Below are positions 32,770-45,078 of a stretch of 45,078 bases of DNA, piece by piece. The stretch is taken from positions 1 to 45,078 of the forward strand of contig JBOFUV010000116.1 in the NCBI GenBank assembly GCA_051652765.1, in the 5' to 3' direction. Origin of the DNA: Microcoleaceae cyanobacterium (lineage in GTDB: Bacteria; Cyanobacteriota; Cyanobacteriia; Cyanobacteriales; Microcoleaceae). The stretch's first letter is position 1. Every line of letters starts with the position of its first letter. The notes under the pieces were generated by a model. That model saw only the letters and a program-made list of their open reading frames with translations. It was not told where the DNA came from and did not search any database. The position numbers and the translations under genes were made by a program.

Positions 32770-34287
32770 TTAGGGAGATAGTTTGTGAGCATTCAGATCT
32801 AACTTGGCTTGTAATTCCGCTTTGATTCGATTCAAAATGGAGGCTTCATCAAGGGACGCTAAAATCTGTTTGACCACTGCCTTTGGCCCTTCCTCTCCCC
32901 AAGATGCACCATTGGCTAAGTATGCCTTTGTCACCTGACCAATGCCGTAGGAAGAAACGCCTGCAACTCCTGCTTGAGTCACTGCGACTGAAAGATAAGG
33001 AATTAAGCTCGCGCCTCCTGTTGCCGGAATCGCTAGCCCCAACAATCCCTTGAGGGAGCTTAAACCTAAATTGGCTAGGAGTTCGCTGGCACCAATCCCG
33101 CCCACACTCAAGGCAATTCTTTGGAGCAAATCGACTGCCCCTTGCTGGGTCATGGAAATCCCATACAGTTTTGACAAGGCTAGAATCATGGTGACATCAA
33201 TCGCAACGCCACTCAACAAATCAATGAATGTCAGGGGATTAAGGGCGATCGCCACAGACTTGGTCATGACAGCGCTCCAAATCGCTCGATTGGCATTCTC
33301 CTCCCGAATTGCCATTTTCCGTTGCACCAATTGTTCATTTACGTCTCCGGCATAGAGCATGGTGTTGAGGGCAACCAGGGATTTACCTTCCCGATCAAGA
33401 ATTTCCAAGATTTTTAGCTTCAGGTCAGCAATTTGGGGTTCTCCCCGGATCAGCTCTGCTTTGAGAGTGCCATCAGGCCGACGGGCTGCCGTGGCAATCA
33501 ACGGAGAAGCCGCCGCCATGACAATCTCATCAGGGGACAGCAACTCCTTCACCCGTTCATCCCGAATTTTTTGGTAAATTGCCATCCGATCGGCTTCGGG
33601 ATACTGATCAATCTTGTTGAACACCAGTAACATCGGCTTGCCCGCTTCCCGCAGTTGGGACAGGGCTTCATATTCTACCTGGGTAATGTCTCCAGAAACC
33701 ACGAACAGGAGTAAATCTACCTGTTGCGCGACTTGCTTGGCCATGGCCTCCCGAGTTTTGCCATCCACTTCATCAATGCCGGGGGTATCAATCAATTCCA
33801 CCTGGGAGATGTGGTAAGAAATAGGAGCCTGGGGTGCAGGAGCAGGAACAGGGGGGGAGAGGGGAAAATCAGGAATCGGGGGGAATAGGTCGTCTAGGTC
33901 ATCTGGATGATTGGATTCGGAGGTGTCCCCAGTTCTAATTTCCGGTTCTGTGGTTTCTAGCTGCCAATCCTGGGACTGATGAACCCGAGTCACCCCGTGA
34001 ATCGGGCCTGTTTCAAATACGTTCCGACCCAGGAGAGCGTTCAGCACCGAGGATTTACCCCGTCCCACCATCCCAAATACGGCGATTTGAATCCGAGTTT
34101 CTTCCAACTTGGTGAGCATAGACTCTAACCCAGTAATTTCTGTATCGAGTCCGGCCCGCTCCTCTGGGGTGAGGTCTAGGTTTGTGACCAAATCCCGCAT
34201 TGCATCTCGGGCGCGACGCAGGTTCAGCTCTTCTTGGATTTCAGTGAAATCCAGCAGTGTTCGGTTCAGGTCTTCGTCTAGGCTCAT
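32770..34287 (-). CDS. Era-like GTP-binding protein with DUF697 C-terminus
   Basis: GMVGRGKSS, DTPG, NKID; hydrophobic C-terminal domain. Confidence 0.88.
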   Translation of the reverse strand: MSLDEDLNRTLLDFTEIQEELNLRRARDAMRDLVTNLDLTPEERAGLDTEITGLESMLTKLEETRIQIAVFGMVGRGKSSVLNALLGRNVFETGPIHGVTRVHQSQDWQLETTEPEIRTGDTSESNHPDDLDDLFPPIPDFPLSPPVPAPAPQAPISYHISQVELIDTPGIDEVDGKTREAMAKQVAQQVDLLLFVVSGDITQVEYEALSQLREAGKPMLLVFNKIDQYPEADRMAIYQKIRDERVKELLSPDEIVMAAASPLIATAARRPDGTLKAELIRGEPQIADLKLKILEILDREGKSLVALNTMLYAGDVNEQLVQRKMAIREENANRAIWSAVMTKSVAIALNPLTFIDLLSGVAIDVTMILALSKLYGISMTQQGAVDLLQRIALSVGGIGASELLANLGLSSLKGLLGLAIPATGGASLIPYLSVAVTQAGVAGVSSYGIGQVTKAYLANGASWGEEGPKAVVKQILASLDEASILNRIKAELQAKLDLNAHKLSP

Positions 34288-34444: not shown

Positions 34445-34573
34445 TCAGGGGTTATTTTTTCTCATTGCTGAGTGCAGGCCATTCCGAGCCAACAAAATCG
34501 GTTTCACTTGGTCAAACCCAAACTTCTGGTAAAAAGCCTGCATTTCTGGTAAGCAACACAGCATGATCCCTTC
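34445..34573 (-). pseudogene. 3' end of a GNAT N-acetyltransferase gene, interrupted at 34573
   Basis: Hand translation EGIMLCCLPEMQAFYQKFGFDQVKPILLARNGLHSAMRKNNP*; FY.K.GF is the GNAT C-terminal motif; an in-frame TAG lies two codons upstream, inside the element. Confidence 0.75.
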
Positions 34574-34593
34574 ACTCTAGGATATTCCGAACC

Positions 34594-35874
34594 TCAAAAA
34601 AAGAGAAGCCTCGGAATTTCACTTTGGATTCTGCAAAACTCTTGCTTCAGATTTTTGTAGAGTTCGTAAGTCGTTCTGAACAATAACCTAATAATCGCGT
34701 CATCTCCCCCAATTGCATCATCACCTGCTTTCATTCGACCATTGCCGATGTCATGTAGACGACGGTGGGTTTTGTGCTTCTCCCAAATCGCTTGTCCCTG
34801 TTCAGATGGAATGTATTTACCTCTTTCCTTGTCAAACCTACCCTTAGCCCACATATAGAGACTGGAACGGCAAATCTTGGAGCCGTGAAATTTCTTCTTG
34901 AGCTGGCCGCTATCTCCTGACTTTTCCAAGGTGTAGCTCAAGCCCAAATAAGCCTGAAACTGCCTTTGAGAGTAGTCATGTTTACTACGCTTCCCTTTGC
35001 TGTTGGTGTGATGTTCGAGATAGACTCGACCGTCGATCAGGAACTTCTCAAAGGGATAGATCTTGCACAGCAAGTAGCTCTTGTTTTTGACCCCAAACTT
35101 GAACGGGCTCATGGCCTGTAAGTATGGCTCAAACTCAGGTTTCCTTAAGAACTCTTCCATCTTCTCCAGGACGTGCAGCTCTTGGCGCTTCAGGTCGCAA
35201 AGGCGCTTAGCATGAAAGCGAGTATAATCACTTAAGCCTGCACCTACAGTTGAACTGTAGGCTTTTCTGAATTGGGAGTAGGTGTGCTCTCCGGCAAGTG
35301 CAGACCAGAACGGGTGACACCCCAACTTGGGGTTAATGCCACAGTCCTTGGCCTCATGCTGAGCCCATTCTGGGAACTCATAGCAAAGCCTTTGCCGAAT
35401 TTGATTAATCAGGCTATTACCAACCTTGTCAATCTGTTCAACCTCATAGAACCAATCCTGGAGCAGCCGGATATCTTGGTTGAACTTGATGAACCTTTTC
35501 TGACCATGCTTGTCAATGAATCTTTCATCGAAATAACAGGCCCCTAAACATAGTGCATCTTCGGGATCTCGTTTATTTTTGAAGCCGTAGCTCATGCGCT
35601 GCGCCTTCAGATCGGCATGACCAATCCACAAGACCTCAATTCCCTGATCCTCGCATCTCTCAGCAATCAACCTGCTATACCACCCTCCAGTTGGCTCCAT
35701 TACGACCTTGTCTGGATTCATCCCCCAAAGCAGATCAAACCCATCCTTATTGCAATCAACCCGAACAAATTCTTTTCGATTCTGGGAGTAGTAGCGCTGG
35801 AGGTTGTTCGGAAAACAATCCAATGCAGCGGCTACGGCGTGGTTACGCCCCACGTCAAGTCCAACAACTATCAT
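34594..35874 (-). CDS. IS110-family (DEDD/RuvC-like) recombinase, divergent
   Basis: GLDVG, MEPTG, KRDPEDA (DEDD set); coiled coil; C-terminal F.AYLGL....EKSG...GS...R..LY with the catalytic Ser. Confidence 0.88.
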   Translation of the reverse strand: MIVVGLDVGRNHAVAAALDCFPNNLQRYYSQNRKEFVRVDCNKDGFDLLWGMNPDKVVMEPTGGWYSRLIAERCEDQGIEVLWIGHADLKAQRMSYGFKNKRDPEDALCLGACYFDERFIDKHGQKRFIKFNQDIRLLQDWFYEVEQIDKVGNSLINQIRQRLCYEFPEWAQHEAKDCGINPKLGCHPFWSALAGEHTYSQFRKAYSSTVGAGLSDYTRFHAKRLCDLKRQELHVLEKMEEFLRKPEFEPYLQAMSPFKFGVKNKSYLLCKIYPFEKFLIDGRVYLEHHTNSKGKRSKHDYSQRQFQAYLGLSYTLEKSGDSGQLKKKFHGSKICRSSLYMWAKGRFDKERGKYIPSEQGQAIWEKHKTHRRLHDIGNGRMKAGDDAIGGDDAIIRLLFRTTYELYKNLKQEFCRIQSEIPRLLFF

Positions 35875-35921
35875 TATTTAAAAATTAAACTGGTTTGGAT
35901 CGTCGCTGTTCTCCCTTAAAA

Positions 35922-36164
35922 GGACATATAACTTCCGAATCCATTGAAAGCCCACAACCAATACGGGGAGCTTAATTCACTCTGTAAGTGTGTCCAGGAG
36001 TGGAAGGCGGCGAAGAGGAGCTTTTGAAGGAATTCAAGCCCGCGCCCATTGCTGGGGGTGCTTACTTCTACTTAGAAGCCCTCAATCTCCGACCTTCCAA
36101 CTACTCCGAAGAGCAGGCGAACAAGGGAGCGACCCTTTGTCCGCAATCCCAGGAACGTGGGATT
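35922..36164 (-). ncRNA. Predicted bridge RNA (5' hairpins, target-binding loop, donor-binding loop)
   Basis: Hairpins at 36145-36164 and 36117-36144; stem-loops 36107-35997 and 35995-35922, each reading guide(..GAA)-NN-AAGC(A/U)CCCC...GGGCUU-linker-guide(..UUC); guides match 34566-34578. Confidence 0.8.
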
Positions 36165-36249
36165 TCTGAGCCACATCAGCTCCACCAACTAGCCGATCCT
36201 GCTAGTGGCGATCGCCTCGCTAGAGACGATTCATCAGGCGGTATTTAGG

Positions 36250-36597
36250 CTACATCTGATCTAATTTATTCTGTGTCAGGTAGGTTTGATATTCTTGCCT
36301 AGACAGCAATGGGAAGATCCCATAAGCTGCTGCTCTAATAGTCCACTGGCTGATCTCTTCTGTAGAACCTAGGGTTCTGACATCTAGCTTCAGTCTTTGC
36401 AACTCTGATCGCCTTGAGTAACAAGGAGCTGCCACGTAGTAAAGCAAGTAGGCTTTCACCAATAGGAACCGCGCATCAGAGCAGTAGCCCCACTTAACGT
36501 CCCTGACGGACAATAAAAGTTCAGGGCATTCTTTTTTCAGATAATCAAACTGGACGGGCCGCCCGCAAGTAAGGTAGGGAGGTCTGAAATCGTTCAT
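36250..36597 (-). CDS. Hypothetical protein
   Basis: ATG-initiated ORF in a tight leftward operon. Confidence 0.6.
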   Translation of the reverse strand: MNDFRPPYLTCGRPVQFDYLKKECPELLLSVRDVKWGYCSDARFLLVKAYLLYYVAAPCYSRRSELQRLKLDVRTLGSTEEISQWTIRAAAYGIFPLLSRQEYQTYLTQNKLDQM

Positions 36598-36601
36598 TTG
36601 T

Positions 36602-37006
36602 TTACACCCGATCTAAAGATTTGGACGCGACCACTTCAAGGTTGTTGAAAACCCTTCTTAGGTTTGAGTCTGTTTCCTCTACTTTCTCTTCCGAGATAGG
36701 CGCACATAGGATGGCGATCGCCTCAACCAGAGAGTTATTGATATCAATCAGGCTTTCCCAGATTGACGTGTATGCCCAGCTTGGATCGGTCGGGCTGTGA
36801 AACGGCTTACTGCAACCGTCAAGTCTGAGACTCCAGCGGTCTAAGACCTCCATAAATTCTTCAGCCTCATCGCCAGATAGAAAGAACGTTGACCCACCTC
36901 TGAGGGAGATCTTTACCCGGACTAACGCTTGATCCTGGAAGACCTCACACCCGGCGATCTCCTCCAAGTCAATCCATATTTGTTCAAACTTAATTAAGTG
37001 TTTCAT
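36602..37006 (-). CDS. Hypothetical protein
   Basis: ORF with AGGAGG-type RBS, overlapping the upstream gene. Confidence 0.65.
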   Translation of the reverse strand: MKHLIKFEQIWIDLEEIAGCEVFQDQALVRVKISLRGGSTFFLSGDEAEEFMEVLDRWSLRLDGCSKPFHSPTDPSWAYTSIWESLIDINNSLVEAIAILCAPISEEKVEETDSNLRRVFNNLEVVASKSLDRV

Positions 37007-37289
37007 TTTTTCTTCCTCCTAAATCGTTTAAGAAATTCCATTGCCACTGTTCCAGCGCTTCTCCAATGTCTCTAGGGGCGAACCCCAGACATTTGTCAAA
37101 AATTTTCATCCATTCGACAATCTCCTTCGGTGAAAGGGAGAATTCATAGATCCGACTAACAGAACTCCCACCCTGAGAGAGAGTGAGCGTTAGTCGAGGT
37201 TCTCTGGGTGTTCGGGTTAGTGGTTGTTCCTCGCACATAAGCCATTTTTTGACATTGCTTTCCTTGACAGACCCCCATTGATTTCTCAT
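36990..37289 (-). CDS. Hypothetical protein
   Basis: First ORF of the leftward operon; start uncertain. Confidence 0.5.
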   Translation of the reverse strand: MRNQWGSVKESNVKKWLMCEEQPLTRTPREPRLTLTLSQGGSSVSRIYEFSLSPKEIVEWMKIFDKCLGFAPRDIGEALEQWQWNFLNDLGGRKNETLN

Positions 37290-37353
37290 ATGAGAATCTA
37301 AAATCCATAATTACTTATATGAGATAATATTGTCAAGGATTCTCATATGTAAA
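37283..37353. promoter_or_regulatory. Divergent control region with three palindromic operator-like sites
   Basis: TTCTCATATGAGAA (37283, perfect), TACTTATATGAGAT (37312), TTCTCATATGTAAA (37340); TTGACA on the minus strand at 37336-37331. Confidence 0.7.
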
Positions 37354-37388
37354 ATTAGAGGTAATGCAGATAGAGATGGGAGCAAATC

Positions 37389-37586
37389 ATGAATCAAGAC
37401 AAGAAGCAACCGGGAAGACCGCCAACAGGGAGAATGAACGCCTCATTCAGGGTCAACCCGTCCCTGTGGGAGAGATTCTCTCGACTGGCGGAGCAGAAAT
37501 CGGTAAACAAATCCGACATTCTAGAAGAATTCCTGATCAACTATTTGGAGGGAAAATTTCATCTGTCGATCAGGCAATCGTCATAG
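37389..37586 (+). CDS. Ribbon-helix-helix (CopG/Arc-like) regulator
   Basis: GRP, beta strand ASFRV, helices LWERFSRLAEQ and NKSDILEEFL; GGGAG RBS. Confidence 0.75.
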   Translation: MNQDKKQPGRPPTGRMNASFRVNPSLWERFSRLAEQKSVNKSDILEEFLINYLEGKFHLSIRQSS

Positions 37587-37589
37587 AAA

Positions 37590-37729
37590 TGATTGATCAA
37601 TGTCGAGAACAGCTTGAAGAATCCGCCGCATGTATCGAGTGGTACCAAAACCAGGAAGCAAAGATTCTAAAGCGATTGAACAACCTGGAACAAATTCTTA
37701 AACGAGCATCGGCAGACGAAGAAGAATAA
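37590..37729 (+). CDS. Small coiled-coil protein (3' part of ORF 37364-37729)
   Basis: MIDQCREQLEES...LKRLNNLEQIL heptads; followed by a terminator; start uncertain. Confidence 0.45.
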
Positions 37730-37734
37730 CTCCC

Positions 37735-37770
37735 ACACTCGCACCCATTGAATGGGTGCGAGTGTTTTTT
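37735..37770 (+). terminator. Intrinsic terminator
   Basis: ACACTCGCACCCATT-G-AATGGGTGCGAGTGT then T-tract. Confidence 0.85.
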
Positions 37771-37825
37771 CTATGCCAAACTCGCACTATTCCAAACAAC
37801 CCTTGAATAAACACCCATTAGCCGT

Positions 37826-38353
37826 ATGAATCAACTCAAAATCAACTTAAACGGTCACGCCCTACTGCCACCCACCCAGTTCGAACAACACGACAAGCGC
37901 TTAACCCTCGTCTATATAGAAGAGAATCCGGGGGCATCCCACAGAGAAATACTGGCTCACCTCAACAACGTTAGGGCAGTTCCCCTGAGACTGGAGCAGT
38001 TGAAATACTTCACCAGTCAGCTCGAACAGAAAGGAGTGTTGGGGCTACAAATAATTCGTTCCCCAAAAAAATCTCAGTCCGATATTTTTTTTTGGGAACG
38101 AATTAAATTAGAGATTCGGTGGTTGAAAGCTGGTGGAAAAGCCAGGGGGGATCACAAGTACCCCTGGCTGTGCGAGGGGAAGAAACCAATCAAATATATT
38201 GGTGGTGGTAATCAAGAAAGTGCGATCGCTCAAGCCAGAGTCGAACTGATTGAGGATTGGATTCTACAAGGGCTTGGCAAAGACGAAATCATAGCCCTAG
38301 TGCCCAGGCTTCAGAGTAGTTTGAAAAAAGTCAAGAAGAAGCCTAAGGATTGA
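37826..38353 (+). CDS. Hypothetical basic protein, possible winged-helix DNA-binding N-terminus
   Basis: YIEENPGASHREIL pattern; Lys-rich C-terminus. Confidence 0.55.
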   Translation: MNQLKINLNGHALLPPTQFEQHDKRLTLVYIEENPGASHREILAHLNNVRAVPLRLEQLKYFTSQLEQKGVLGLQIIRSPKKSQSDIFFWERIKLEIRWLKAGGKARGDHKYPWLCEGKKPIKYIGGGNQESAIAQARVELIEDWILQGLGKDEIIALVPRLQSSLKKVKKKPKD

Positions 38354-38583
38354 GATAGTTCGCATGGTAAGATACACACATTAAACCAGACTGAATTCTC
38401 TACCAAAAAGGGCATCTTCACTCAATATTGAAAATTGCGCTTTTAGATAAAAGAGCAAATGCAAAAGCCCCGGCAAAACCCCCTATTTTCCGGGGCTTAC
38501 GGCCAAAACCCTTTAGGAAATCTGCCGATTCAATTTGCTAATATGTAGTCAGTTCCGGGAAACAGCAAATAGATTTTAATGAT

Positions 38584-39174
38584 ATGGCTAAAAATCGCGG
38601 GCACGGAAAAGCCACTATTTTAAGCAATAAGGATTACGAGAAAATTTACGACCAATTGGTCACAGATCAACAGCGGTGCATCTTCTCCCTGTTGCGATAC
38701 ACGGGTGAGCGAATCTCTGCCGTGCTTCAACTTGAAGTCAGCGACGCTTACCAGAACCCCTGGGAGTGCGAACCCAGAGATCAGATCACCTACAGGGCCA
38801 TCACCCGAAAAAAGTCAGACGGCAAGGCTATCACCCGGCAGGTTCCAGTCAACCGAGCAATGCGGGCTGAGCTGAAGAACTTCCAACCCCCGTTGACTGG
38901 GTTCTTGTTTCCCAGTCCGTTACGACCAGATGCTTCCATTTCTCGACAGAGTGTAGATCATTGGTTCCGGCGTGCTTGTTCATCAGCCGGACTGGGACGA
39001 CAGGGGATATCATTGCACAGCCCCCGGCGAACCTTGATTACCAAGCTTGCCCGTGAGGGAGTGCCCGTGGCGATCCTGAAGCAGGTCACCGGACATCAAT
39101 CGACAGAGACCCTAATCAAACACTATGTGGATGTAGACGAAAAAGCAGTTGTTCGGGCAATGGAGCTGATCTAA
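38584..39174 (+). CDS. Tyrosine recombinase (catalytic domain only)
   Basis: YTGERISA (R), K, HSPRRT (HxxR), TGH, HY (Y nucleophile). Confidence 0.93.
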   Translation: MAKNRGHGKATILSNKDYEKIYDQLVTDQQRCIFSLLRYTGERISAVLQLEVSDAYQNPWECEPRDQITYRAITRKKSDGKAITRQVPVNRAMRAELKNFQPPLTGFLFPSPLRPDASISRQSVDHWFRRACSSAGLGRQGISLHSPRRTLITKLAREGVPVAILKQVTGHQSTETLIKHYVDVDEKAVVRAMELI

Positions 39175-39477
39175 CATTCCCCTCAGGCTTGGTTTGCGTT
39201 TAAGCACCTGGCGTTGAAAAATTACCCCGGCAAAGTTCACCCGGCGCTCGGTCTAAAATCCTTTTAGTTCAAAAGTTCCCCCTTGGTAGGGATCAGGGTT
39301 GAGTAGATGTAGATGAGAAAGCAGTCGTTCGGGCAATGGAGTTAATCTAAGATCCCCCTGGTCTTGCGACTACCCCAAAGTATTGCTATCAAAGGATCGT
39401 CTCCGAGAGAAATCACCCGGCGCTCGATCTAGAATCCTTTCAGCTCAAAAGTTCCCCCTTGGTAGGGGTCAGGGTTG
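39127..39477. repeat. 176-bp-period tandem duplication covering the 3' ends of two convergent genes
   Basis: 39127-39174 ~ 39303-39350 and 39237-39301 ~ 39413-39477; the intervening 62-bp segments differ. Confidence 0.9.
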
Positions 39478-40379
39478 GGCGTGTATTTGGAAACAACCAC
39501 AGTGTCATACTTCCCTGTACCTGGATTTGTCGCTACAAACCTTCCCACGTAGCTAGTCATGGTAGGGCTAAGGGTGAGCAAGTTGTTTTGTACGTTACTT
39601 GCCCAGAGGTTCTGACTTAATGCCCCGGCGATCGCCGAATCAATTGAACCGTATTCTGGATTGATTACATCACTAGCCACAGCCCCAATCAGCCCCATGA
39701 TCCGCTCCAGATCCAGCCACTGGAACCCAACAACGCTAGAAGTAACAGTAACGACAGGATCAGCTGTAACCGCAAAATTGATAGCTTGCCCCATCTGAAA
39801 TTGATCAACAATCACCACCTTGTAGCCCGTGATATTCTGTTCGGAGTCGAGGAACTTGACCGCATTCTGCTCAAACTCATTGCTAGGGTTATCAAAGAAT
39901 CGTTCAAATGGAGAACTGTAATTTTCCCCGGTGCCAATGGCTAGCTTAATCTTTATGGATACAGGCATTTCATCTTCCTCAGCTCCAATAATTCCTGCGA
40001 TTGTGAAGTTTGACCGGACAATCAATTCAATCGTAGCGTCAGCTTGCCCCTGGATGCTCACCTGTTGCTTGTTGGTCTGTTCTCGGAATGTTTGACCAGG
40101 GGCTAGTCGGAATGGGATCTTAGAGCTACCCACAAACACCAAAAGCTCATCATTTGAGGTATTTGTGATGATGACTTCTCGAACATAGGTTTTGTCAGTG
40201 ATTTTGGCTTCAGTTAGGATAGTTTGATTAGAGCCGTCAAGGGCAATTCTTGCCCCGTCTGTATGACTGAGATCTGGATTGCCAACAATCCCATTAAAAT
40301 TTAAATTATTCAGCTTGTCTAGGATTTTATCTAGATGTTCAGAATAGTCAAACGCAAATGAATTACCAGAGAACGGCAT
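39429..40379 (-). CDS. Hypothetical beta-rich protein, possible virion component
   Basis: VIITNTSNDELLVFVG...RLAPGQTF beta-sandwich-like pattern. Confidence 0.55.
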   Translation of the reverse strand: MPFSGNSFAFDYSEHLDKILDKLNNLNFNGIVGNPDLSHTDGARIALDGSNQTILTEAKITDKTYVREVIITNTSNDELLVFVGSSKIPFRLAPGQTFREQTNKQQVSIQGQADATIELIVRSNFTIAGIIGAEEDEMPVSIKIKLAIGTGENYSSPFERFFDNPSNEFEQNAVKFLDSEQNITGYKVVIVDQFQMGQAINFAVTADPVVTVTSSVVGFQWLDLERIMGLIGAVASDVINPEYGSIDSAIAGALSQNLWASNVQNNLLTLSPTMTSYVGRFVATNPGTGKYDTVVVSKYTPNPDPYQGGTFELKGF

Positions 40380-40406
40380 AATTCAATAAAACAAAATTTT
40401 GTTTTT

Positions 40407-41195
40407 ATGGTAACTTACTCAGGATCAGCCTTTGTACAGATGAGCTTTGCTGGAACGCCTATTTTAAGAACAGCTACACTACTCAGCTTCAATCAATTAA
40501 CAAATGAGTATTTGGAAGATGAGATCTTAACTCGGTCTTTCAGATTGGAAATTTTTAATCTGATTTTGATTAGCCATATTAGATCATTGCCTGTATCGGC
40601 TCCACCCAAAATCAGAGACTTTGACTCATCCTATGATCGTTGGATGGCTCTGGAAGAGCATTTTCAGGACAAAGTTCACATGAAAGCCCGAGTGGCGATA
40701 GGAAACTATCCCCTGATGGAAGCTAGGATTTTCAACTATAAATCACCATGGAAAAATAATTTAACGGAAGATTTCAACCAAACTGGAAAGCGACTACAGA
40801 TTGGTAAGAATCAGTCTGTTGAATTAATGCTACATCAGGACTACTACCAAGGGGTAGAGGGTGATATTCTTGATTTGCATTGCAACTATGTTCTGTATCG
40901 TGATACTGAGTCAGAGGGGCTTTCTAGGAGTGTAAGCTCAAAGAGTATGGAGGTTTCAGAGTTTAAAACCACTGTCCTAAACAACACCTCTGTTTATTCA
41001 ATTGACCTAAAAAACGATGGGGAAGAAATCATTTTTATTGATTTCTCTTCTGATCCATCTAGTGACGGTATTTCCCTTAAGTCCGGTGAATCCTTCTGTT
41101 TCAATGAAGAGGGAATACTTCTCCGCGAAATAAACCTTAAAACATATTGCTTACCCAAAAAAACATCTAGACTTGGAATCATTTATAAATATTAA
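40407..41195 (+). CDS. Hypothetical protein, possible virion component
   Basis: C-terminal IDLKNDGEEIIFIDF...GISLKSGESF pattern like that of the neighbouring protein. Confidence 0.55.
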   Translation: MVTYSGSAFVQMSFAGTPILRTATLLSFNQLTNEYLEDEILTRSFRLEIFNLILISHIRSLPVSAPPKIRDFDSSYDRWMALEEHFQDKVHMKARVAIGNYPLMEARIFNYKSPWKNNLTEDFNQTGKRLQIGKNQSVELMLHQDYYQGVEGDILDLHCNYVLYRDTESEGLSRSVSSKSMEVSEFKTTVLNNTSVYSIDLKNDGEEIIFIDFSSDPSSDGISLKSGESFCFNEEGILLREINLKTYCLPKKTSRLGIIYKY

Positions 41196-41203
41196 ATCTA
41201 AAA

Positions 41204-43171
41204 ATGGCAGAAACAGCCCTCGGCTATCAAGACGGCCCGTCTATTTCTGAAGTCAAAGAAACTCTAAGAGAAGTTGCCTCACAAGATCCTCACTTAGATA
41301 CCTTTGAGGAAAGATCAAGTCCTTACGATGAGGGAGACAAAGGGATAGAAGAAGTCCGTAGACAGAGAGAGCTGCAAGATCTAGAGATTGCAGTTGAAGA
41401 ATTGGATATTGACGCTCAACAAACTTACTTTGATGAATACGATGGCTCTGCCGGGGGGCTGAGGAAAGATAGAGATATCAACAGGGGAATAGACAAGGGC
41501 AATCCTACTGAGTTCATGAGAGATGAAATAGAAGAAGGTCATTCTAGTGCTACTTTTGAGAGTTTCGAGGGATCTGAAGGAATGGATCTTTGGCCCGAAA
41601 TCGAAGAAGCCATCAAGGATGGGGCTACCGCTGCCGAAGAGGAGAATAATTCCTCAGCACATAGAGAGACTCAGTTTGGAGAGGGTAGTACTACGGTTAA
41701 TGGAAGGAAAGTAGATCGAAAAGGACTTAAAGACTGGCTTGAATCAGTGGGGCCTAGCAAGTGGGGAATTGGAAAAAGCTATAGCCAGCTTGCTCACGAA
41801 ACAAGGGTTAGAAGCAGTAAAGGTGGTGTAAGCATATCTACTGGAGGGTTTAGTAAACGAATAAAAGTAGGGGGGATCGTTAGGTATGACGATCTATACT
41901 TTCAACGCCCTTGGAGTTCGAGTAATCCATATGGGAGTCCGGCAAGTAATGACTATGCTCGCGCTTACTGTGAAGGGCTATCATCTGCAAGCTTTGGCGG
42001 TAGCAATGCGTCCGGATCTAAGAGGGCAGAAACTCGCAGGGAATCGGATAGCGGCATCAGCGGCGGAAGATGGCTAAGTCCTAGGGAACTAATTGATGAT
42101 TTATTTTTTTTCCCTGAGGGTCATTATGGTTGCGGTTATGATATATGCCCTAAAAATACGACCCGAACATGGGTTGAACGAAACGGAGTTGTTGTTACTT
42201 CTACGCATCACAGAACCTACAAAGGTAGCCAGTCAGCAGTAATTGGTGGGTATGATCTAGATGGTGGCTTAATAGATGTTCCTCCAAGAATAATTATCGA
42301 TGACTCTATGGAAAAGTCTTGCTGTCAGATGATTGCGCGAATTTACGATGTCATTAATCCGGATCAATATCCCGGAGAGATGCCATCTACCATGCTTAAT
42401 GACGATCCCGATCCTAAAACAATTAATTCCCTCACTGACTTGCTGCTTCACAAATTTCGCTTATGGGACGAGGCAACGGGTCAGTATCCAGTGAAAATCA
42501 AAATTCCTGACGCGGATCGAACCCAGGAAGGGGAACAGAGCCTTGATCTAAAATTTCCTAATCAAGCCGAACTTTTGGCAGAAATTTACGGGTTAGTGAT
42601 GAACCAGAGCGTAGACAATGACCTCTATGAAGATTATCTAGCCCGAATCATTACTGAGATAGGCTTAACTCGAATATCGGCACGACAGGCTTATGATGCC
42701 TTGAAAGAGATCTTAGACTGGCTAGGGGTTGACTGGGAAAAACGAGAAGGCAAGATGCAAATGACCTTTACGCCGGGGGAGGAGATGGCCGAAAAAGTAC
42801 TGCAAAATTCAACCCAACCCTATCAGCAACCTCATATTAAAGAGGGAGAACAAAGTCTAAAGGAAATTCTCCAACAGCTTCTAAATGCTGCTGCAATTAT
42901 CCGCTCCGTTCACTTCAGACCAGTAGACAGGAAGGGGGATGTTAAAGGGCAAATTATCAACAACCTCAAGCGAGGTATTGACTTGTATGACAAGCTCTCT
43001 AACATTGAAAGCAAGTCTGACGATGGTCAATCATGGGAAAAATTTAAGGAGATGGTTCAAGCCAATTTTTCGACACCTGGAGATACTCAGAAAAGTGATA
43101 ATCCCCTAATCAAAGATTTCAAACCAGGAAGCGTCCCAGGCTCCAGTCCCAAACCCAAGTCCCAACCCTAA
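41204..43171 (+). CDS. Large hypothetical protein (acidic N-terminus, Gly/Ser-rich middle, helical C-terminus)
   Basis: 655-aa uninterrupted ORF. Confidence 0.7.
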   Translation: MAETALGYQDGPSISEVKETLREVASQDPHLDTFEERSSPYDEGDKGIEEVRRQRELQDLEIAVEELDIDAQQTYFDEYDGSAGGLRKDRDINRGIDKGNPTEFMRDEIEEGHSSATFESFEGSEGMDLWPEIEEAIKDGATAAEEENNSSAHRETQFGEGSTTVNGRKVDRKGLKDWLESVGPSKWGIGKSYSQLAHETRVRSSKGGVSISTGGFSKRIKVGGIVRYDDLYFQRPWSSSNPYGSPASNDYARAYCEGLSSASFGGSNASGSKRAETRRESDSGISGGRWLSPRELIDDLFFFPEGHYGCGYDICPKNTTRTWVERNGVVVTSTHHRTYKGSQSAVIGGYDLDGGLIDVPPRIIIDDSMEKSCCQMIARIYDVINPDQYPGEMPSTMLNDDPDPKTINSLTDLLLHKFRLWDEATGQYPVKIKIPDADRTQEGEQSLDLKFPNQAELLAEIYGLVMNQSVDNDLYEDYLARIITEIGLTRISARQAYDALKEILDWLGVDWEKREGKMQMTFTPGEEMAEKVLQNSTQPYQQPHIKEGEQSLKEILQQLLNAAAIIRSVHFRPVDRKGDVKGQIINNLKRGIDLYDKLSNIESKSDDGQSWEKFKEMVQANFSTPGDTQKSDNPLIKDFKPGSVPGSSPKPKSQP

Positions 43172-43270
43172 ACATGAATTTGACAGATTAATACAACGAG
43201 ACAAAGCGATCTCAATTTGACCCTAGCTTTTAATCCTAAAAAGTCTCTAGAGAGTAATTTCAAAATGGTT

Positions 43271-43370
43271 AGGGTTTAAATTCTAATAACCAGAGTTTAA
43301 ATTTTAATAGTCAGAGTTTAAATTTTAATAGTTAGGGCTTAAATTCTAGTGGCTAGGATTTAAATTCTAA
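43271..43370. repeat. 5 x 21-bp AT-rich direct repeats (AGRGTTTAAATTYTAATARYY)
   Basis: Units start at 43271, 43292, 43313, 43334, 43355. Confidence 0.85.
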
Positions 43371-43452
43371 AATTGTCTTAAAAGGTCTCGCAAATTATCT
43401 AAAACTTCCCTAATCCCAAACCCAACCCCAAACCCAACCCCAAACCCAGATC

Positions 43453-44991
43453 ATGAGCTTTGCTATTCTTGCTAAAAATTTGCCCTCAAGAAAGGTCAGG
43501 GCGGCAATCACCGGATCACCTGGCGGGGTGAGGATCTTTGCCAAGTCCGATGAACTGGCGGCGGCGGCCTCTGGTATTGGGGGATTTATCAGGTCTGCAT
43601 TCAGGCGGCTGGTTGGGTTCATCTCTCAAGCCCTGAATTTGGCATTTCAAGCTATTCGGTTCTCGTTCACTAAGTTGTGGCAGTGGACAGTTAATACTGT
43701 TCAGTACTTGTGGACATTCAACTGGGACGTGTCCGATACAAGCATCGATGCTGAACTTCAGAGGATGTGGAATTCAACTGGAGGACTGCTAGGAGGGTTT
43801 GCCGGACAACTCGTTGGTTGGACTGCTTGCGGGTTCGCTCCAGGTGCTGTCATTGCTGTATTTAATGAACCCCTTGGACGTTACCTCATGGCGGAAGTTG
43901 GGCAAGAGGCAGTAGAGGAGCTGGCTGGATCACTTGCATCTATCATTCAAATCAGCGCTCAAAACCTTGCTAAGGCAACATTTCTGTGGACGTTTAAGTC
44001 AATCAGGAGTCTAATCAAGCGCGGGTTGAAGCCTCAAGGTATCGATCTAACGGGTTGGGGGAACGATGAAGAAAAGGACTGGAGTTTTGCGAGACAGCTA
44101 CAAAAGAAGGTTGGAAGTATCCAAAATGAATGGTGGCAAGAATTCGTTGAAGAGTTCTTCGAGGAAGCGTTTGACAGTTGCCAAGAGGCAGGATATGCCC
44201 TGGCTGGAGCTGCCGATAGTTGGTATGCTCAACAGGAAGAATTGAAGCGTTCAGGGTTGTTAGGACAAAGTCGAACAATTGAGTTTTACCCAAACAAGGA
44301 AGTCAAGTCCGAACGTCTGATCCTCACGGGCCCCGAACAATTAGTTAAAGCCGGGGTAATTTCCGCTCTCAATACCAGGGAGCTGCTGGATAACCGACAA
44401 GCTGAGATGGTGAGCAGTCAGGTGGATTTGGATGTCATCACTCCATTAGAATCGGTTGGCTTGGAATTAAAGCTAGAATTCTACAACTTTCCCGAAACGC
44501 CTTATTTTACTAAAGACCGAAGGAAGGATGTAGTCAGAAGTCAATTAGTTGTCCCTAATGCAAACCGAGCCAAACTGGGCTGGAACGAATTTAAGGGATT
44601 GTTCTCAGGGCAAGTTTTCAGCAAGGGAATTTATAGTGGTCTAGCAGTTCTAGACAACGGTAAAAGATTGAAGTTGTACGCTTCAAGCGAACAAGAAGTT
44701 GAGCAAATGTTAGTCAAAATGGCTCAATTGACAACCGCTGAAATTATTTATCCATTGCACATTACCAAGCGAACAAAGTTTGAAGATACCGCTAAAAAGC
44801 CAGACATCAAACCTCAATACTTAGGCTACGTTCACATCGTCAACTGGCCTAAAATCACCAACTACCAAAAGAAGAAAGGAATTAGACCAACTGGCAAGTA
44901 TGGCAAGGTTAGACTCCCGATGCAGGCAAAAGAAAAACCGAGCTGGTGGGATGAGGATTTAAGAAAAGCTCTGTCTACAGGTCTAGCCTAG
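43453..44991 (+). CDS. Hypothetical protein with Trp-rich amphipathic and Gly-zipper helices
   Basis: 512-aa ORF; GGLLGGFAGQLVGW segment; followed by a terminator. Confidence 0.7.
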   Translation: MSFAILAKNLPSRKVRAAITGSPGGVRIFAKSDELAAAASGIGGFIRSAFRRLVGFISQALNLAFQAIRFSFTKLWQWTVNTVQYLWTFNWDVSDTSIDAELQRMWNSTGGLLGGFAGQLVGWTACGFAPGAVIAVFNEPLGRYLMAEVGQEAVEELAGSLASIIQISAQNLAKATFLWTFKSIRSLIKRGLKPQGIDLTGWGNDEEKDWSFARQLQKKVGSIQNEWWQEFVEEFFEEAFDSCQEAGYALAGAADSWYAQQEELKRSGLLGQSRTIEFYPNKEVKSERLILTGPEQLVKAGVISALNTRELLDNRQAEMVSSQVDLDVITPLESVGLELKLEFYNFPETPYFTKDRRKDVVRSQLVVPNANRAKLGWNEFKGLFSGQVFSKGIYSGLAVLDNGKRLKLYASSEQEVEQMLVKMAQLTTAEIIYPLHITKRTKFEDTAKKPDIKPQYLGYVHIVNWPKITNYQKKKGIRPTGKYGKVRLPMQAKEKPSWWDEDLRKALSTGLA

Positions 44992-45027
44992 AAAAGTTGC
45001 TGCACCTCTAGAGGCGCAGCAACTTTT
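44992..45027. terminator. Bidirectional-type intrinsic terminator
   Basis: AAAAGTTGCTGCACCTC-TA-GAGGCGCAGCAACTTTT. Confidence 0.8.
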
Positions 45028-45078
45028 GATAGCTTGCCAGAAACAAAAATTTTATTAATGATGAAAAAGTCCAGTTAA

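Follow-up and report, generated by a model that had tools for sequence, protein, structure and literature searches.

Does a pair of stem-loops just ahead of a transposase gene serve as a guide RNA and, if so, what does it guide, and to which site? The stretch of Microcoleaceae DNA analysed here (the window, 45,078 nt) raises this question on its minus strand, where positions 36099-35922 form two stem/internal-loop modules with GAA or UUC in all four loop strands, and a 426-aa open reading frame (35874-34594, minus strand) lies directly downstream. Sequence comparison indicates a guide ('bridge') RNA with two loops, next to an IS110-type recombinase that has diverged very far, and we put the probability at roughly 87% that 36246-34571 (minus strand), comprising bridge RNA and recombinase, is the integration module of a 12,994-bp element. 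The features on which the argument draws are as follows.

34566..34570, minus strand: right target half-site RT, GGGAT, in the host flank; the first codons of the C-terminal half of a GNAT gene; pairs with the right target guide (RTG)
34571..34573, minus strand: right-hand copy of the 3-nt core GAA, where homology to the paralog on contig C92 stops; GAA stands at both junctions in 7 of 7 bounded elements
34574..34593, minus strand: right end of the element, 20 nt from stop codon to core; its final AGAGT (5 nt) forms the left donor half-site LD
34594..35874, minus strand: bridge-type DEDD recombinase, 426 aa (NCBIfam NF051857, E 4e-108)
35922..35995, minus strand: donor-binding loop, with outer stem GGACA/UGUCC, left donor guide (LDG) 35983-35976, inner hairpin 35973-35948 and right donor guide (RDG) strand 35947-35935
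36001..36099, minus strand: target-binding loop, with a long outer stem, left target guide (LTG) 36073-36066, inner hairpin 36063-36036 and RTG 36033-36026
36101..36144, minus strand: two 5' hairpins of the bridge RNA, the first starting GCGG, seen in single folds and in a three-sequence consensus with compensatory changes
36145..36241, minus strand: hammerhead-like 5' domain (CCGC 36241-36238, CUGAUGA 36237-36231, GAAA 36166-36163, stem III 36163-36146, U 36145, then GCGG)
36250..45078, continuing into contig C19, no single strand: cargo, with 10 open reading frames in the window and a gene order common to two paralogous elements
38584-39174, plus strand: tyrosine recombinase, 196 aa (PF00589, E 5e-17)

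A two-loop RNA beside a divergent IS110-type recombinase

In the target-binding loop, the left strand LTG (AAGTAGAA; as RNA, AAGUAGAA) and the right strand RTG (ATTCCTTC; as RNA, AUUCCUUC) are separated by the inner hairpin AAGCACCCCC..GCGGGCTT, which reads AAGCACCCCC..GCGGGCUU as RNA. The donor-binding loop repeats this plan with LDG (AGAGTGAA; as RNA, AGAGUGAA), the inner hairpin AAGCTCCCC..GTGGGCTT (as RNA, AAGCUCCCC..GUGGGCUU) and RDG (ATGGATTC at 35944-35937; as RNA, AUGGAUUC). The coordinates and strings of these guides and hairpins had been proposed in an original prediction made from the letters alone, and re-reading the minus strand found every one of them exact.

The structure is a property of the family. 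In an alignment of 31 of 39 anchored leaders (eight irregular or truncated leaders were excluded), the helices that close both loops and the donor inner hairpin have 96.4% of their cells paired, against 78.1% in shuffles; the covariation score of the closing helices was reached by none of 500 shuffles, 75 cells carry double changes, and pairing drops to 17-68% in slid controls. Between the window and its paralog on contig C92, the outer target stem changes in a compensatory manner from GGAAGG/CCUUCC to GAGAGAG/CUCUCUC and the outer donor stem from GGACA/UGUCC to GCCUA/UAGGC. Single-sequence folding energy gives z = -0.85 for the loops alone (35915-36132), with 41 of 200 shuffles folding equally well, and z = -3.1 for the whole leader. 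A search of the bridge RNA region against Rfam matched no family.

The protein is recognised by NF051857 ('IS110 family transposase') at 361.9 bits against a cut-off of 180, and falls below the cut-offs of NF033542 ('RNA-guided'; 38 bits against 140) and of both Pfam domains (PF01548, 21.4 against 29 bits; PF02371, 20.7 against 21.3 bits). The single sequence matched nothing in the PDB by phmmer, and as a query in the search for related loci the single protein likewise found no match. A profile built from 33 of 41 full-length homologues matched the ISCro4 recombinase (E 7e-8) and the IS621 recombinase (E 3e-5), its positions 4-158 aligning to ISCro4 10-158, the N-terminal RuvC-like domain. Across these 33 homologues D7, E60, D103 and D106 (the DEDD residues) and S319 are invariant, as is the pair S319-G320, which belongs to the C-terminal Tnp domain, where IS110 proteins have their conserved serine in a G-x-x-P...S-G motif, and aligns, weakly (8.2 bits), to the ..YESGSS.. 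stretch of ISCro4; the window's reading frame is intact. An AlphaFold (AF2) model of the protein has a pLDDT of 90, and its 10 best fold matches in the PDB are IS621 and ISCro4 chains in bridge-RNA complexes (E 3e-8 to 2e-7, ~16% identity), followed by Nop5 and RuvC. The fold match covers the full length of this divergent IS110-type protein, which keeps the DEDD tetrad and the catalytic serine. A protein-collection search returned 87 relatives at E<=1e-10, named 'IS110 family transposase', 'transposase' or 'hypothetical protein'; the organism names shown among them are all cyanobacterial. The suggestion that this is a distinct family stands in part: the RNA is without an Rfam match and the protein below Pfam cut-offs, but the protein has an existing NCBI model (NF051857), and published bridge RNAs include many divergent ones.

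The ends of a 13-kb element inside an acetyltransferase gene

The right end is bounded by the C92 paralog, which lies in the same genome (75% identical DNA, 79% identical protein). Both copies end in ..CCTAGAGTGAA, after which the flanks diverge (GGGATCATGC in the window, AATATTACTG in C92), and the reverse complement of RTG tracks the flank: it is TGAAGGAATTC in the window and TGAAAATATTG in C92, whose junction reads TGAAAATATTA. LDG equals LD plus core, 8 of 8 positions; this identity to the element end at 34578-34571 had been predicted, and C92 homology stops exactly at 34571. Also as predicted, RTG faces host GAAGGGAT (34573-34566) with 7 Watson-Crick pairs and one G-U, of which the pairing with RT itself makes up 4 Watson-Crick pairs and the G-U.

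Where is the left end? It lies outside the window, on contig C19, ~11.5 kb upstream of LTG and 13 kb from the right junction. The last 84 nt of the window overlap the start of C19 with one mismatch, and synteny, the LTG match and the two GNAT halves agree in joining the window's contig (C116) to C19 across this overlap. The junction, 2.5 kb into C19, reads ..CCCAAGTA-GAA-TCGTTAGG and contains AAGTAGAA, an 8 of 8 match to LTG; DNA homology to the C94 paralog starts ~29 nt inside it. Gene order is common to the window element and two paralogous elements up to the window's end. These paralogs are bounded in the same way: the element on C87 and C92 has the left junction CCCATAGA-GAA-TCGTTAGGG and LTG UCAUAGGGAAAU, with one G:T adjoining the core, and for the element on C94 and C84 the left junction is CATTAGCA-GAA-TCCCCACAG and the right one ..TAAGATGAA-AGGAG, both in agreement with that element's guides. 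In a second genome, G284, four copies show a loop-1 left strand that equals 6 nt of flank plus GAA at left junctions 6.9-7.4 kb upstream, and the common left end TCCCCAAAAAGG.. follows each of these junctions. The elements measure 12,994, 17,294 and 15,723 bp in the window's genome and 8,319-8,870 bp in G284.

In C19 the flank codes for residues 1-103 of a GNAT-type acetyltransferase and stops at the GAA codon; the remaining 41 residues are encoded by the right flank in the window, and taking out the 12,994-bp element rejoins the two gene halves. Homologues of the N-terminal half occur in 141 of 151 genomes of the order, and in 10 of 11 fetched loci the two halves stand at neighbouring codons of one open frame, as expected of an empty site. 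Because the halves are continuous in these 10 of 11 relatives, the insertion lies within a gene, each junction carrying one GAA. The genome holds no near-identical second copy of the element, and as its three elements are only ~75% alike, nothing shows recent movement. The host gene just past the insertion (32770-34287, minus strand) encodes a dynamin-like GTPase with a DUF697 domain and is not part of the element.

Two nearer left ends were considered and rejected. At 36246, where C92 DNA homology starts, the flank misfits LTG, and the upstream gene lies within the repeated unit in relatives; at 38267 (GTAGAATCCA, a 10-nt exact match) the site falls inside a reading frame that is contiguous and syntenic in two paralogs. 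A genome-wide search for the predicted junction with 2 mismatches allowed returned dozens of chance matches and was uninformative.

Guides follow junctions across relatives

For a wider comparison we drew 45 related loci from 401 genomes of the class and identified right ends by a simple rule, namely a leader 8-mer ending in GAA that recurs after the gene. This rule placed the right end in 27 of the 45 loci; the other 18 were dropped, in some cases with contigs that end and in some with donor loops that differ. The recurring 8-mer is the exact LDG, and its variants AGAGTGAA, AGAATGAA, AGAAAGAA and AAGATGAA covary with the end downstream of the gene. RTG matches the core-adjoining flank by at least 5 contiguous Watson-Crick pairs in 22 of the 27 loci, most often exactly 5, whereas exchanging flanks among loci gave at least 5 in 2 of 702 non-cognate pairings. 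By this strict count the window's own RTG scores 2: GG, then a G-U at RT position 3, then AU, with mismatches past position 5.

Both sides can be scored in seven fully bounded elements. Cognate runs are 5, 0 (a G:T wobble, then 5), 6, 6, 6, 6 and 6 for LT, the left target half-site, and 2 (then G:U, then 2), 6, 5, 5, 5, 5 and 5 for RT; the longest run among non-cognate guide/flank pairs is 3 (42 pairs per side). The left junction was sought further in nine GAA-core loci with upstream DNA, and in six of them, from four more genomes, LT followed by GAA and TCCCCA lies 9.8-14.2 kb upstream. For L025 and L046 the search returned only matches that are without the conserved end; within this extra left-junction set L054 has only 6.2 kb upstream, L036 has a different core, and L031 and L039 are without a parsed guide. 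A lack of covariation between guides and junctions in homologues had been set beforehand as one refutation of a guide function; the covariation is there: the target-loop strands match and covary with the flanks on the right (22 of 27 loci, against 2 of 702) and on the left (13 elements). The geometry originally proposed, LTG/RTG and then LDG/RDG as in IS621, is borne out on all four sides in the seven fully bounded elements and on the target side in six further ones.

The four G284 copies (L055-L058) are 92.6-94.4% identical overall, and they differ nearly everywhere in their target-loop guides and inner-hairpin loops. The stems flanking these variable loops are identical, and each guide set fits its own unique flank. 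From their sequences, these differences would amount to natural retargeting. The recombinase is broken into two frames in copy d, and in copy c its first 28 codons are missing.

A three-nucleotide core and an interrupted donor guide

The proposal of a 3-nt GAA core is upheld by the junctions, in which GAA is the sole sequence common to both sides while the bases on either side vary among elements. The family alignment agrees: amid otherwise variable loops, the conserved columns are GAA in the two left strands and UUC in the two right ones. One relative changes the core itself. The right end of L024 reads ..AAGGTAAA-GGATA, with RTG UAUCCUUU, LDG GGUAAA and RDG GAUUUG, so that all four guides have moved together to AAA/UUU and the core is AAA; L036 appears by eye to have the same AAA core.

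The donor side is less regular. The reverse complement of RDG is GAATC[C]ATT and the element's left end is GAATCGTT; with no bulge allowed, pairing between RDG and RD, the right donor half-site, covers the core plus 2 and ends there. We infer a pairing of core plus 2, a 1-nt RNA bulge and then 3-4 pairs, a fit that holds for both left-end types, TCGTT and TCCCCA, and these end types covary with the guide. The prediction of symmetric guides of ~8+8 nt needs qualifying: three guides are of about 5-6+3, 5+3 and 5+3, and the RDG-RD pairing is interrupted.

Some leaders depart further from this plan. L029 and L051 (G348) carry two target-loop-like modules in tandem ahead of the donor loop and have GGGGACUC in place of GUGAUUC as the donor-loop right strand; their core or architecture may differ. 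In L021, L028 and L035 a canonical hammerhead is followed by repeated ..GAGAGAAUAC.. / ..GAGAGGAUAUC.. units with no GUGAUUC donor loop, a further architecture of the bridge RNA family.

A hammerhead motif at the 5' side of the guide RNA

Leaders of relatives begin CCGC-CUGA(U/C)GA-hairpin-GAAA-hairpin-U-H-GCGG, which we take to be a hammerhead core with stem I open (type I). The signature is found in 16 of 45 loci by a strict script and in 27 of 45 by a looser one. In an alignment of 18 sequences (leaving out this genome's three copies, three with long insertions and three near-duplicates), the core CUGA-N-GA .. GAAA .. U-H, followed by GCGG, is invariant, and stems II and III covary, with 7 of 13 pairs showing double changes and 3-11 double changes per pair. 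The domain has the invariant core, covarying stems II and III and open stem I of a type-I hammerhead, and differs in a stem I of only 4-6 bp.

A covariance model of the domain, R1, matches 24 of 45 loci at E<=1e-6, six of them outside its training set, with scores of 33-71 bits (50-71 in 23). Searched against 151 genomes of the class, it returned 16 matches in 11 genomes, and 15 of the 16 are followed within ~350 nt by a gene for the family recombinase (one of these an 89-aa fragment); one match is without such a gene nearby. The Rfam hammerhead models recognised none of 20 loci at gathering score, none of 8 loci at E<=1 and nothing in the window. The type-I hammerhead abuts the 5' side of the bridge RNA in 24 of 45 loci (leaders among L019-L054, for example L034 1196-1262). 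Cleavage after H in these relatives would leave an RNA starting with GCGG, the first bridge-RNA hairpin.

The window's own copy is altered. Three hairpins stand where the stem II of a type-I hammerhead should be, U-U is present, and R1 scores 12.2 bits (E 0.81). Its unconstrained minimum-energy fold closes CCGC/GCGG around a five-way junction, and compensatory changes preserve this junction across the window and its two paralogs. We suggest that this hammerhead-like domain has been remodelled and that it may still self-cleave, a putative activity. L023 has a similar insertion with two hairpins, and leaders of the G284 type have no hammerhead core. Inside the window's extra hairpins, at 36214-36205, lies a HIP1-type cyanobacterial palindrome, GGCGATCGCC; the paralogs have GGTGAATCGCC there.

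In the literature that we searched, no paper links a hammerhead to IS110 or to bridge RNAs, and none is, to judge by titles, on bridge RNAs in cyanobacteria; one relevant text covers hammerheads and IS110/bridge RNAs as separate topics.

Cargo of the element

A compact insertion sequence of about 1-1.6 kb with the RNA in its left end is not what these junctions delimit: the elements span 8,319-17,294 bp, with LTG 6.9-15.8 kb from the left end. What the window carries is accordingly not a compact IS: the module occupies the right end of a cargo element of 12,994 bp. On the RNA strand, promoter-like sites occur only at 37353-37307, ahead of three small reading frames that run into the RNA.

Nine of the ten reading frames in the window belong to no Pfam, NCBIfam, PADLOC or PHROG family, and over the cargo as a whole (window 36250-45078 plus L061 1-2570) 10 of 12 are without a match in these collections; those without a family match include proteins of 655, 512, 316 and 262 aa. 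PADLOC returned no match. The leftmost gene (L061 1974-2567) encodes a C39-like peptidase similar to the phage endolysin family phrog_10051 (E 7e-54). The tyrosine recombinase (38584-39174, plus strand; L055 4950-5546, minus strand; 196-198 aa) consists of the catalytic domain only and is the sole cargo gene common to the window element and the G284 elements; its strand is opposite to that of the IS110-type gene in the window and the same in G284. It could take part in mobility. Cargo reading frames of similar size in the window and G284 showed no similarity. Two tandem ~175-bp units, 76% identical, occupy 39127-39477, between the tyrosine recombinase gene and the 316-aa reading frame, and a 31-nt near-perfect inverted repeat (96.8%) at 37735-37765, just after a 121-aa reading frame, is probably a terminator hairpin.

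Proposed mechanism and alternatives

How might such an element move? We propose that the module consists of a ~330-nt non-coding RNA followed by a divergent IS110-type recombinase, and we infer that the RNA is made, bound by the recombinase and used to direct recombination. LTG (AAGUAGAA) has the top-strand sense of the left target half-site plus core and would pair with the bottom strand, LDG (AGAGUGAA) would play the same role for the element's right end, and RDG, bulged by 1 nt, would read the core and the left end. If the reaction resembles that of IS621, the recombinase and its RNA would bring the joined ends of an excised circle (..AGAGT-GAA-TCGTT..) into synapsis with a target of 13-14 bp (5-6 nt + GAA + 5 nt), and strand exchange within GAA would insert the element without duplication beyond the core. 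At 11.5 kb from the left end, the RNA cannot depend on a promoter that circularisation restores, the arrangement in IS621; it is probably read through from the cargo operon, its 5' end probably set by processing. A fuller account would hold for the 8-17-kb cyanobacterial elements as a group: the bridge system acts as their integrase, every copy has a rewritten target loop that directs it to a unique chromosomal site (the interior of a GNAT gene, for example) and not to a repeat, the guide is carried in a long cargo transcript, and a hammerhead frees it, with the window's ribozyme in a five-way form. We rate that whole account at slightly worse than even odds.

Might the bridge module be a small IS110-type insertion sequence nested in an unrelated genomic island that its own tyrosine recombinase moved? 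A 196-aa tyrosine recombinase is indeed present in the cargo of the three G000 elements and a G284 element, and minimal IS110 elements are the rule in the literature. A nested element should, however, leave an LT-core-RD junction just upstream of the RNA, where none is found; the candidates at 36246 and 38269 lie in stretches that the paralogs carry unbroken and in the same gene order. Against it, too, the guide-specified ends bound the whole 8.3-17.3-kb unit in all seven bounded elements, the left junction fits six more, and a gene is split cleanly at GAA, so that we consider nesting very improbable. Still less credible, to the point of being negligible, is the idea that the twin hairpins are an ordinary structured leader of a transposase mRNA with chance complementarities. 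The loops' ordinary single-sequence folding (z = -0.85; 41 of 200 shuffles) would suit it, but guide-flank matching is cognate-specific, and the four-way covariation of the core comes on top of the covariation of the helices.

A more serious competitor grants the bridge system by descent and regards the window copy as an immobile relic, with a broken 5' domain, slightly decayed guides and a single diverged copy. The hammerhead model's 12 bits here against 33-71 in the 24 matching loci, an RTG with a G-U and distal mismatches, and a genome without a near-identical second copy all fit such a relic. They are countered by an intact reading frame with all invariant residues present, by a five-way junction in which CUGAUGA, GAAA, stem III and U-H-GCGG persist and which three paralogs share, with compensatory changes, and by the compatibility of G-U and G:T with pairing. 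We regard the relic as unlikely, though by a clear distance the likeliest of these alternatives. The reading of 36246-34571 as an integration module remains our preference.

Relation to known bridge RNA systems

In IS621, Durrant et al. (2024, PMC11208160) describe left guides with top-strand sense, right guides that are complementary, and a core in all four, and they describe an excision step that rebuilds a promoter for the bridge RNA. The window system resembles it in an RNA upstream of the recombinase, with 5' hairpins, a target loop and then a donor loop, and in a recombinase whose best PDB fold match is IS621 (structures 8wt6-8wt9). It differs in a core of GAA (3 nt) instead of CT, a protein of ~16% identity that is ~100 aa longer, a bulge-interrupted RDG and, in relatives, a hammerhead at the 5' side; unlike in IS621, 6.9-15.8 kb separate the RNA from the left end of an element of 8-17 kb, and no promoter can be rebuilt at the circle junction. 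ISCro4 and IS622 reportedly encode bridge recombinases too, according to a preprint by Perry et al. In our comparisons (9t56), ISCro4 is the best PDB profile match (E 7e-8) with a fold match equal to that of IS621, whereas without a profile it has no sequence-level match to the window protein; the other differences are as for IS621.

Large cargo-bearing IS110 loci are themselves on record. Hu et al. (2026, 10.64898/2026.08.14.744561) report recombinase/bRNA units that bound multi-gene cargo, with a 9,177-bp circle recovered, and stress plasmid-derived and resistance cargo and a progressive, sloppy expansion. Compared with those loci, the window lineage stands out as a conserved lineage with clean guide-specified ends, mostly unmatched cargo and a small tyrosine recombinase; in that text, words beginning cyanobacteri and the words tyrosine and trinucleotide do not occur. 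The seekRNA systems of IS1111/IS110 likewise pair an RNA guide with a DEDD transposase, and Siddiquee et al. (2024, PMC11187229) describe insertion without true duplication, with the repeated bases belonging to the element, and discuss repeated bases of other lengths at IS110/IS1111 ends. According to these authors, IS1111 has its RNA downstream of the gene, and subterminal inverted repeats, whereas the window RNA is upstream. Judged by sequence, the departures from the textbook system are a 3-nt core, an interrupted donor guide, an 8-17-kb element at unique sites and a hammerhead in relatives.

Bridge recombinases are under development as programmable genome-writing tools, and this lineage would add a very distant design, with ~16% identity to IS621, a 3-nt core, 10-11 programmable target positions and a predicted bulged donor guide, together with what appears to be the natural mobilisation of 8-17 kb of cargo with clean ends set by the guides. 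Another 2026 preprint presents many divergent bridge-RNA models from a pipeline that required both Pfam domains and searched no further than 1 kb from the gene; by our reckoning, surveys that depend on Pfam cut-offs and on so short a distance could miss whole bridge families. The fused hammerhead suggests how a guide within a long transcript gains a defined 5' end and, if our fuller account is true, these cyanobacterial elements would hold a natural ribozyme-processed guide RNA for a DNA recombinase.
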